Source: Escherichia coli O157:H7
GTDB lineage: Bacteria; Pseudomonadota; Gammaproteobacteria; Enterobacterales; Enterobacteriaceae
DNA: 64,000 bases
NCBI RefSeq assembly: GCF_013167455.1
Contig: NZ_CP038328.1
Reading direction: 5' to 3' (one strand)
Of the stretch, positions 15,001-18,000 are shown piece after piece (position 1 is the first letter of the stretch; each line of letters opens with the position of its first letter). A program made the position numbers.

Positions 15001-18000
15001 CATAACCTCAATGATTTATTTTTATACAAACTATGTTACGTGCTGTAACAGGAGCGCGAAGTGTAGGGTCTGAGGTACATCTTAGAAATCAGACCAGTGG
15101 CGAGAGTATAGGTCGGACCAGCTGGAATGTTGCAAGTATGTTTCTATCTTTTTTCAAATATGATCTAAGAAACGCGATCCAGCTGGCAAAATTTGGAGGT
15201 GGCGCACTCATGGATTCGGGTGAATTTTGTTTTAGATCATTTTTAAGTGTGATTTCGGTCACTTATCCGATTTTGCAGAATTAACAACTGGAGCAGCACT
15301 TTCCGGAAGCGTAAAATATCCACAACGTTTATCTGGCACCTTGGGTGCACATACAGAGGAAATCAACGATGAGTAAATGTAGTGCTGATGAAACCCCGGT
15401 TTGCTGCTGTATGGATGTTGGCACCATTATGGACAACTCCGACTGCACAGCGTCTTACAGCCGCGTGTTTGCAAACCGCGCAGAAGCAGAACAAACGCTG
15501 GCGGCGCTGACTGAGAAAGCCCGTAGCGTGGAATCCGAACCGTGCAAAATCTCCCCGACTTTCACTGAAGAGTCTGATGGTGTGCGCCTGGATATCGATT
15601 TCACTTTTGCCTGCGAAGCTGAAATGCTGATCTTCCAGCTGGGTCTGCGTTAATTCCTCTCGGATAAGTACGCTCCTGCCAGCAACAGGTAGGGGCGTTT
15701 TCTTTTCTTTCTCCTGTCTTCACTGTGTCATAGCTCCCAATTTCCCTTTTCTCCGCTTGGCTAAATGTAAAAAAATGGTTAAGACTATGATCAGGTCAGA
15801 CCACTTTATTTATTTTTTTACAGGGGAGTGTTATGGGTCAGGTTTTACCGCTGGTTACCCGCCAGGGCGATCGTATCGCCATTGTTAGCGGTTTACGTAC
15901 GCCTTTTGCCCGCCAGGCGACGGCTTTTCATGGCATTCCCGCGGTTGATTTAGGGAAGATGGTGGTAGGCGAACTGCTGGCACGCAGCGAGATCCCCGCC
16001 GAAGTGATTGAACAACTGGTCTTTGGTCAGGTCGTACAAATGCCTGAAGCTCCCAACATTGCGCGTGAAATTGTTCTCGGTACTGGAATGAATGTGCATA
16101 CCGATGCTTACAGCGTCAGCCGCGCTTGCGCTACCAGTTTCCAGGCGGTTGCAAACGTCGTAGAAAGCCTGATGGCGGGGACTATCCGAGCGGGGATTGC
16201 CGGTGGGGCAGATTCCTCTTCGGTATTGCCAATTGGCGTCAGTAAAAAACTGGCGCGCGTGCTGGTTGATGTCAACAAAGCCCGCACAATGAGCCAGCGT
16301 CTGAAACTCTTCTCTCGCCTGCGTTTGCGCGACTTAATGCCCGTACCACCTGCGGTAGCAGAATATTCTACCGGCTTGCGGATGGGCGACACTGCAGAGC
16401 AAATGGCGAAAACCTACGGCATCACCCGAGAACAGCAAGATGCATTAGCGCACCGTTCGCATCAGCGTGCCGCTCAGGCATGGTCAGACGGAAAACTCAA
16501 AGAAGAGGTGATGACTGCCTTTATCCCTCCTTATAAACAACTGCTCGCGGAAGACAACAATATTCGCGGTAATTCCTCGCTTGCTGATTTCGCAAAGCTG
16601 CGTCCGGCGTTTGATCGTAAACACGGAACGGTAACGGCGGCGAACAGTACGCCGCTGACCGATGGCGCAGCGGCGGTGATCCTGATGACTGAATCCCGGG
16701 CGAAAGAATTAGGGCTGGTACCGCTGGGATATCTGCGCAGCTACGCATTTACCGCTATCGATGTCTGGCAGGACATGTTGCTCGGTCCAGCCTGGTCAAC
16801 ACCGCTGGCGCTGGAGCGTGCCGGTTTGACAATGGCAGATCTGACATTGATTGATATGCACGAAGCCTTTGCCGCCCAGACGTTGGCCAATATTCAGCTA
16901 CTGGGTAGTGAACGTTTTGCTCGTGAAGCGCTGGGGCGTGCACATGCCACTGGCGAAGTGGACGATAGCAAATTTAACGTGCTTGGCGGTTCGATTGCTT
17001 ACGGGCATCCCTTCGCGGCGACCGGCGCGCGGATGATTACCCAGACATTGCATGAACTTCGCCGTCGCGGCGGTGGATTTGGTTTAGTTACCGCCTGTGC
17101 TGCCGGTGGGCTTGGCGCGGCAATGGTTCTGGAGGCGGAATAATGGAAATGACATCAGCGTTTACTCTTAATGTTCGTCTGGACAACATTGCTATCATCA
17201 CCATCGACGTACCGGGTGAGAAAATGAATACCCTGAAGGCGGAGTTTGCCTCGCAGGTGCGCGCCATTATTAAGCAACTCCGTGAAAACAAAGAGTTGCG
17301 AGGCGTGGTGTTTGTCTCCGCTAAACCGGACAACTTCATTGCTGGCGCAGACATCAACATGATCGGCAATTGCAAAACGGCGCAAGAAGCGGAAGCTCTG
17401 GCGCGGCAGGGCCAACAGTTGATGGCGGAGATTCATGCTTTGCCCATTCCGGTTATCGCGGCTATTCATGGCGCTTGCCTGGGTGGTGGGCTGGAGTTGG
17501 CGCTGGCGTGCCACGGTCGCGTTTGTACTGACGATCCTAAAACGGTGCTCGGTTTGCCTGAAGTACAACTTGGATTGTTACCCGGTTCAGGCGGCACCCA
17601 GCGTTTACCGCGTCTGATAGGCGTCAGCACAGCATTAGAGATGATCCTCACCGGAAAACAACTTCGGGCGAAACAGGCATTAAAGCTGGGGCTGGTGGAT
17701 GATGTTGTTCCGCACTCCATTCTGCTGGAAGCCGCTGTTGAGCTGGCAAAGAAGGATCGCCCATCTTCCCGCCCTCTACCTGTACGCGAGCGTATTCTGG
17801 CGGGGCCGTTAGGTCGTGCGCTGCTGTTCAAAATGGTCGGCAAGAAAACAGAACACAAAACTCAAGGCAATTATCCGGCGACAGAACGCATCCTGGAGGT
17901 TGTTGAAACGGGATTAGCGCAGGGCACCAGCAGTGGCTATGACGCTGAAGCACGGGCGTTTGGCGAACTGGCGATGACGCCACAATCGCAAGCTTTGCGT

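Follow-up and report, generated by a model that had tools for sequence, protein, structure and literature searches.

Three 17-bp sequences in a 64,000-nt stretch of the Escherichia coli O157:H7 chromosome (from here on, the window), two of them upstream of fadL and one upstream of fadI (Table 1), are, with near certainty, the known FadR operators of the fadL and fadIJ promoters in E. coli. The two fadL sites stand above chance because of their position, their identity to published EMSA probes and their conservation, while the equation of 15790-15806 with the published fadIJ site draws on the description given in a review, on a matrix scan and on conservation, not on a string match. All of these sites are already known and present ordinary, well-described biology, and the sequence-only reading, which had offered them as expected, was right in this: they are known operators, with nothing new about them. 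The value of the exercise is that of a sanity check, as the locus and its textbook regulatory sites had been named correctly from raw sequence.

The locus and its genes

The genes are arranged in the order fadL (reverse strand), yfcZ (forward strand) and fadI-fadJ (forward strand), with yfcZ divergent from fadL and placed between two FadR-controlled promoters, and with fadI and fadJ (15833-19287, forward strand) forming the operon for a second beta-oxidation complex. The identities of fadL and fadIJ, for which the operators had been taken as support, are borne out by protein family models, with scores far over the cut-offs, and by the RefSeq annotation (Table 1). As to the start of fadL, RefSeq places it at 14997, and an in-frame ATG at 15003 corresponds to the older start used in literature numbering.

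Table 1. Features of the fadL-fadIJ locus and of its surroundings, in coordinates of the window.
Feature	Position	Strand	Sequence and basis
MlaA	11111-11866	+	NCBIfam equivalog model
fadL	13657-14997	-	NCBIfam NF007988 equivalog, 877 bits (cut-off 585); RefSeq; ORF list
fadL FadR site 2	15083-15099	-	CACTGGTCTGATTTCTA; in EMSA probe fadL-FadR2; 5 consensus mismatches
fadL transcription start (A)	15098	-	Published distance of 95 bp counted from ATG 15003; arithmetic
fadL putative -10 hexamer, TATACT	15105-15110	-	Placed by sequence, counting from the published start
fadL FadR site 1	15107-15123	-	AGCTGGTCCGACCTATA; in EMSA probe fadL-FadR1; 3 consensus mismatches
CRP-cAMP site	15246-15267		AAGTGTGATTTCGGTCACTTAT; within validated probe fadL-CRP-site1 (PMC3460868), window 15234-15278
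yfcZ (DUF406 protein, 94 aa)	15369-15653	+	TIGR00743, 157 bits; RefSeq
yfcZ intrinsic terminator	15670-15698	+	Terminator scan; 11-pair stem, then T run
fadIJ FadR operator	15790-15806	+	ATCAGGTCAGACCACTT (reverse complement AAGTGGTCTGACCTGAT); top PWM match; conservation; review description
fadI	15833-17143	+	TIGR02446, 901 bits; RefSeq
fadJ	17143-19287	+	TIGR02440, 1345 bits; RefSeq
fabB FadR activator site	34666-34682	+	GGCTGATCGGACTTGTT; PWM scan; core of published fabB EMSA probe
fabB	34749-35969		ORF; annotation

The 951 bases around the sites are a 100% match to O157:H7 strain PV15-279 (NZ_AP018488.1), and of the 5426 complete E. coli genomes, 5425 carry the locus once, always annotated as fadL / yfcZ / fadI. 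The content of the first 10,000 nt of the window is unlike that of PV15-279, and a 1-base offset is seen beyond approximately 20 kb. In alignment with K-12 MG1655, the fadL-yfcZ spacer is fully identical, and so are the last 65 or so nucleotides 5' of the fadI ATG, the operator included; the changes between O157 and K-12 are confined to yfcZ codons and to positions in or just past the yfcZ terminator, those in the terminator stem being compensatory. Beyond E. coli, fadL and fadIJ are neighbors in all 80 Enterobacteriaceae species sampled.

The interval 15087-15806, under which the operators had originally been reported, does not hold together as one regulatory region, containing as it does the fadL promoter, a CRP-cAMP site that is strongly conserved in the fadL-yfcZ spacer, the whole of yfcZ along with its terminator, and a separate fadI promoter. 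The terminator, a strong one, parts yfcZ transcription from the fadI promoter, which puts the fadI site in a different transcription unit from that of yfcZ. A search against Rfam over 13000-20500 returned no match.

FadR sites at the fadL and fadI promoters

Compared to the consensus aaCTGGTCnGACC(T/A)Gtt, fadL site 1 agrees at 13 of 16 positions and fadL site 2 at 11 of 16, the latter possessing a perfect left half-site and a degenerate right half. The sequences of Feng and Cronan's EMSA probes for both sites are printed in PMC4259882 and PMC3460868, and both probes match the window exactly, fadL-FadR1 (GCAACATTCCAGCTGGTCCGACCTATACTCTCGCC) at 15099-15133 and fadL-FadR2 (CTCTCGCCACTGGTCTGATTTCTAAGATGTACCTC) at 15072-15106. 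FadR was found to bind the two sites with equal affinity and to be freed from both by oleoyl-CoA, results that the authors noted to agree with earlier DNase I footprinting (PMC3460868). The sequence-only reading had placed two reverse-strand sites at 15087-15123; the sites and the strand stand, while the span clips the last 4 nt of site 2.

Transcription of fadL has been reported to start 95 bp 5' of the ATG (PMC3460868). Relative to this start, site 1 falls, by arithmetic, at positions -25 to -9, over the spacer and over four bases of the putative -10 element, and site 2 at -1 to +16. The TATACT hexamer ends 7 nt before the start A, is conserved in approximately 79 of 80 species, and shares its first four bases with site 1, of which they are the final four. 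Measured against the published start, the two sites fit the geometry expected of a repressor, overlapping the -10/+1 region. A -35-like sequence, TTGCAA, is also present in this promoter, at 15130-15135 on the reverse strand. Repression of fadL by FadR is modest (PMC3460868), with expression up approximately 2-fold in the fadR W60G mutant K113 and raised in a fadR deletion or with oleate (PMC3460868, PMC4259882). The predicted fold of the fadL 5'UTR was not better than that of shuffled sequences (z = -0.8).

As to the fadI promoter, the site is located 3' of the yfcZ terminator, ends 27 nt 5' of the fadI ATG, and agrees with the consensus at 13 of 16 positions as written and at 14 of 16 on the opposite strand (two to three mismatches); it is the sole strong match upstream of fadI. 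The coordinates originally assigned to it proved exact. Long-chain fatty acids are reported to induce the fadIJ operon in a manner dependent on FadR, which represses it directly through a single site overlapping the (predicted) start (PMC9329746, citing Campbell et al., 2003). A search for the 17-mer, in either orientation, did not find the published sequence of the fadIJ site in the papers covered, reviews included. The curated databases presumably list exactly this 17-mer, ATCAGGTCAGACCACTT, as the fadIJ FadR site. The operator would lie in the region where fadIJ transcription is thought to begin.

A scan with the sigma-70 consensus missed both the fadL and the fadI promoter, its sole match being weak, unrelated and located at 15160-15189. 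By eye, candidate -10 hexamers for fadI may be seen in TATGAT (15786-15791) or TAAGAC (15780-15785), and a candidate CRP-like sequence, TGTGT-N6-TCCCA, near 15724-15739.

Scan statistics and conservation

The consensus, as given in PMC9329746, was searched through the whole 64 kb, allowing up to three mismatches, and in 100 shuffled sequences. Five matches were found at three places, vs 0.52 expected, and none of the 100 shuffles reached five. One place is fadL site 1, another is the fadI site, matched on both strands, and the third is 8706-8722. The latter sequence, with three mismatches, is positioned inside a giant ORF with an LPD38 domain and is probably a chance match; the matrix matches in the window under 10 kb also fall within this ORF.

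A scan with a FadR matrix had been proposed as the check on the sites, and a score below threshold as their refutation. The scan was run over 63,984 positions with a symmetrised PWM built from four to six sites outside the locus (fadD1, fadD2, fadBA, fabA, fabB and fadE), and its outcome differed among the sites. The fadI site passed cleanly, ranking first of 63,984, with 0.01 equal-or-better matches per shuffled window. For fadL site 1 the result was marginal (rank 3-4 of 63,984; approximately two equal-or-better matches per shuffled window), and fadL site 2 was at chance level (rank 27-134 of 63,984; 31-150 equal-or-better matches per shuffled window). A symmetrised PWM penalises half-site operators; with an unsymmetrised PWM the same site ranks 12th. 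A matrix threshold is therefore unsafe as a refutation of FadR sites, as it would wrongly discard the EMSA-validated fadL site 2, which is recognisable only by where it lies, by its constant distance from site 1 and by its conservation.

Conservation was followed in YfcZ-anchored loci from 80 Enterobacteriaceae species, including those of Escherichia, Salmonella, Citrobacter, Klebsiella, Enterobacter, Kluyvera and Kosakonia. The fadL two-site block, 41 nt in length, is free of indels in all 80. The core of site 1, CTGGT(C/A)nGACC, is kept in 78 of the 80 species, and the core of site 2, CTGGTCTG(A/C), in every one. The half-sites are conserved and the central N varies (A, C, G), and, likewise, the 7-nt spacer between the sites varies in sequence and is fixed in length. 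Some of the conservation could have other sources, of the overlapping -10 hexamer in the case of site 1 and of the transcript start in the case of site 2. Among 5425 E. coli genomes, 4781 carry the 62-nt fadL operator block at 99% identity or more, and the only changes in a sampled variant, at box position 2 and at the central N, make it the form common in other genera. At the fadI promoter, 75 of 78 Enterobacteriaceae species retain the core AGGTCnGACCAC, and the site ranks first of 163 in conservation among the 17-mers of the yfcZ-fadI spacer (identity 0.965, median 0.70), followed immediately 3' by a sequence rich in indels across species.

Mechanism, competing readings and related systems

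In K-12, FadR has been shown to bind at fadL, to be released by acyl-CoA and to repress the gene approximately 2-fold, and fatty acids to induce fadIJ in a manner dependent on FadR (PMC3460868, PMC9329746). Because the sequences are identical, the mechanism may be carried over to O157:H7, in which we infer FadR control to be the same. According to this model, in the absence of long-chain fatty acids FadR, an acyl-CoA-responsive regulator of the GntR family, would occupy each of the imperfect 17-bp palindromes as a dimer. The fadL promoter would hold two dimers, one over the spacer and the first bases of the -10 hexamer (-25 to -9) and the other over the start (-1 to +16), and at fadIJ a single dimer would cover the presumed start region just 5' of fadI, so that RNA polymerase would be blocked by promoter occlusion. 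Fatty acids entering via FadL and activated by FadD would provide long-chain acyl-CoA, which would bind FadR; FadR in this form would leave the DNA, and fadL and fadIJ would be derepressed. Additional control is contributed by CRP-cAMP, ArcA, OmpR and the small RNA RybB. The notion of a lipid-regulated local regulon finds support in the adjacency of fadL and fadIJ and in the presence, 19 kb off in the window, of fabB with its own FadR site, while the word "local" is loose, as the gene for FadR lies elsewhere and the members of the regulon are scattered.

One competing reading is that the boxes serve, in addition to FadR or in its place, LldR, responding to lactate (box AAnTGGTCnGACCAnTT), or PdhR, responding to pyruvate, which would tie fad gene expression to lactate or pyruvate and not to acyl-CoA alone. 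Both belong, with FadR, to the FadR subfamily of the GntR family, and both recognize nearly the same consensus, TGGTCnGACCA. Their binding at the fadL-fadI locus is known from weak gSELEX peaks only. The LldR peak falls in the yfcZ/fadL spacer, where the two fadL boxes are the best matches to the LldR box (11 of 14 and 9 of 14 positions), but it is low, at 6.6 vs at least 13 for true targets (PMC10272880). The PdhR peak falls at fadI/yfcZ, and fadI, fadJ and fadL mRNA levels are lower in a pdhR mutant, but the box put forward there for PdhR is another, poor sequence (7 of 14), not 15790-15806 (PMC7660256). As FadR binding and acyl-CoA release were directly demonstrated for the fadL boxes (PMC3460868), we consider this reading unlikely; LldR and PdhR would constitute, at most, an added layer, and no replacement for FadR.

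It may also be asked whether the fadL two-site block bears constraint beyond FadR, with a second factor or the initial transcribed sequence sharing its bases. The suggestion stems from the low variation of the right half of site 2, TGATTTCT (+9 to +16), from the fixed length of the 41-nt block in the 80 species, and from the LldR gSELEX peak. This right half is non-consensus (the consensus being GACCTGTT) and is as conserved as the consensus half. We regard such an extra constraint as a long shot; if real, a second factor could possibly tie lactate or pyruvate sensing to fatty-acid uptake.

The same observation might be turned against site 2 itself, which would then be a chance half-site, conserved on account of the fadL transcript start and the first part of the 5'UTR: contacts with FadR do not by themselves explain the conservation of TGATTTCT, the matrix score is at chance level, as given above, and only the left half-site fits, leaving five mismatches to the consensus. 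This is highly improbable, as an isolated 35-bp probe carrying site 2 alone binds FadR as well as site 1 does and is released by oleoyl-CoA, a published EMSA result that refutes the proposal (PMC3460868). Finally, that all three sites are chance consensus matches of no regulatory role, short degenerate motifs being prone to recur, as at 8706-8722, has next to no probability, given the excess of matches over shuffles, the location of every promoter-proximal match at a gene under known FadR control, the footprint conserved across 80 species and the published FadR binding (PMC3460868).

With FadR operators thus remaining the preferred reading, the sites can be placed among the known members of the regulon. 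The closest counterparts are the K-12 fadL sites 1 and 2 (PMC3460868), with the same sequence across the spacer, the same probes and the same start-relative positions, the host strain being the sole difference. The K-12 fadIJ (yfcYX) site belongs to the same gene pair, with an identical site-to-ATG sequence and a single near-start site (PMC9329746), and its coordinate identity with 15790-15806 would follow from these. The operators of fadBA, fadE and fadD (sites 1 and 2) share with those of fadL and fadIJ the 17-bp dyad CTGGTCnGACC. Like fadL, fadD possesses two sites and is weakly repressed (PMC3460868), but its sites are 68 bp apart, whereas those of fadL are separated by 7 nt (24 bp centre to centre) by our own count and by 8 bp according to PMC3460868. 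The fadBA operator is a near-perfect palindrome conferring 5-10 fold repression, in contrast to fadL site 2 with its one good half-site. Upstream of accD, the scan turned up nothing resembling the FadR consensus at the thresholds applied. The activator sites of fabA and fabB are recognized by the same protein and belong to the same dyad family, but have the core CTGATCGGACTTG and not CTGGTCnGACC. The FadR sites of these two genes are positioned 5' of the promoter (at approximately -40) and activate transcription. The fabB site found in the window ends 66 nt 5' of the fabB ATG.

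FadR sites of the window

Besides the two operators of fadL (sites 1 and 2) and that of fadI, the window holds a fourth FadR site, the activator site of fabB, whose sequence is that of the core in the EMSA probe published for fabB. The window thus has three FadR-controlled promoters (fadL, fadIJ, and fabB) inside 20 kb. A further sequence like the FadR consensus, AACTGGTATGACAAGGT at 8706-8722, has three mismatches and falls within the coding sequence of the giant LPD38 protein. With about 0.5 such matches expected per window, it probably arose by chance.

One example of site loss is presented by Tenebrionibacter intestinalis, in which fadL has kept site 2 but lost site 1 (TAGCGGCTCGTCCTATA), and the site of fadI is lost as well, and these losses may mean that FadR control has been rewired or lost in this insect-gut lineage.

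Features of the window discussed in this part
Feature	Position	Strand	Remark
Giant ORF, ~2793 aa, annotated LPD38 domain-containing protein	1281-9662	+	adjoins yfdC
343-aa ORF, annotated hypothetical	12261-13292	-	between mlaA and fadL
Conserved fadL 5'UTR stretch and hairpin	15056-15072 and 15013-15068	-	
CRP-cAMP site validated for fadL	15234-15278, core 15246-15267		
fabB FadR activator site, GGCTGATCGGACTTGTT	34666-34682	+	66 nt upstream of fabB ATG
fabB	34749-35969		

The fadL-yfcZ spacer and the yfcZ terminator

The validated CRP-cAMP site lies upstream of both genes, approximately 158 nt from the fadL start but only approximately 110 nt from the ATG of yfcZ, and one idea is that it might also serve the divergent yfcZ promoter; a TAAAAT at 15312-15317 is well conserved. 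The most conserved 17-mer of the spacer (0.98 across 80 species) falls within the fadL 5'UTR, on the minus strand, and is adjoined by a small perfect hairpin (TGTTAC-AGCAC-GTAACA). A published probe covering this stretch showed no CRP binding, and the fold of the fadL 5'UTR over its whole length was no better than those of shuffled sequences. Possible roles for the stretch include OmpR sites, or else sRNA or mRNA structure. The lowest cross-species conservation at the locus is found in the spacer around the intrinsic terminator of yfcZ (15670-15698), whose stem changes between O157:H7 and K-12 are compensatory (ACGCTCCTGCC...GGTAGGGGCGT versus ACGCCCCTGTC...GGCAGGGGCGT).

The first 10 kb and a hypothetical ORF

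The first part of the window (1-9700) gives a 99.5% match to O157 strains such as strain 9000 and is not collinear with O157:H7 strain PV15-279, which carries at tRNA-Arg a degraded P22-like prophage with IS1203. The 343-aa ORF, for which NCBIfam models give no match, is probably the yfdF counterpart.

Other regulators at fadL and fadI

In the LldR gSELEX table, the two FadR boxes of fadL (15083-15123) are the top matches to the LldR box, the LldR peak itself being weak (PMC10272880). For PdhR, a gSELEX peak at fadI has been assigned a proposed box, cAgcGGTaaaACCtgac, a poor one (PMC7660256). This box is found at approximately 15838-15854, where fadI has its first codons. Near the beginning of the fadL reading frame, among the signal-peptide codons, GCAGTGGC (approximately 14947-14954, minus strand) is complementary to the seed at the 5' end of the sRNA RybB, which fits the reported repression of fadL by RybB.
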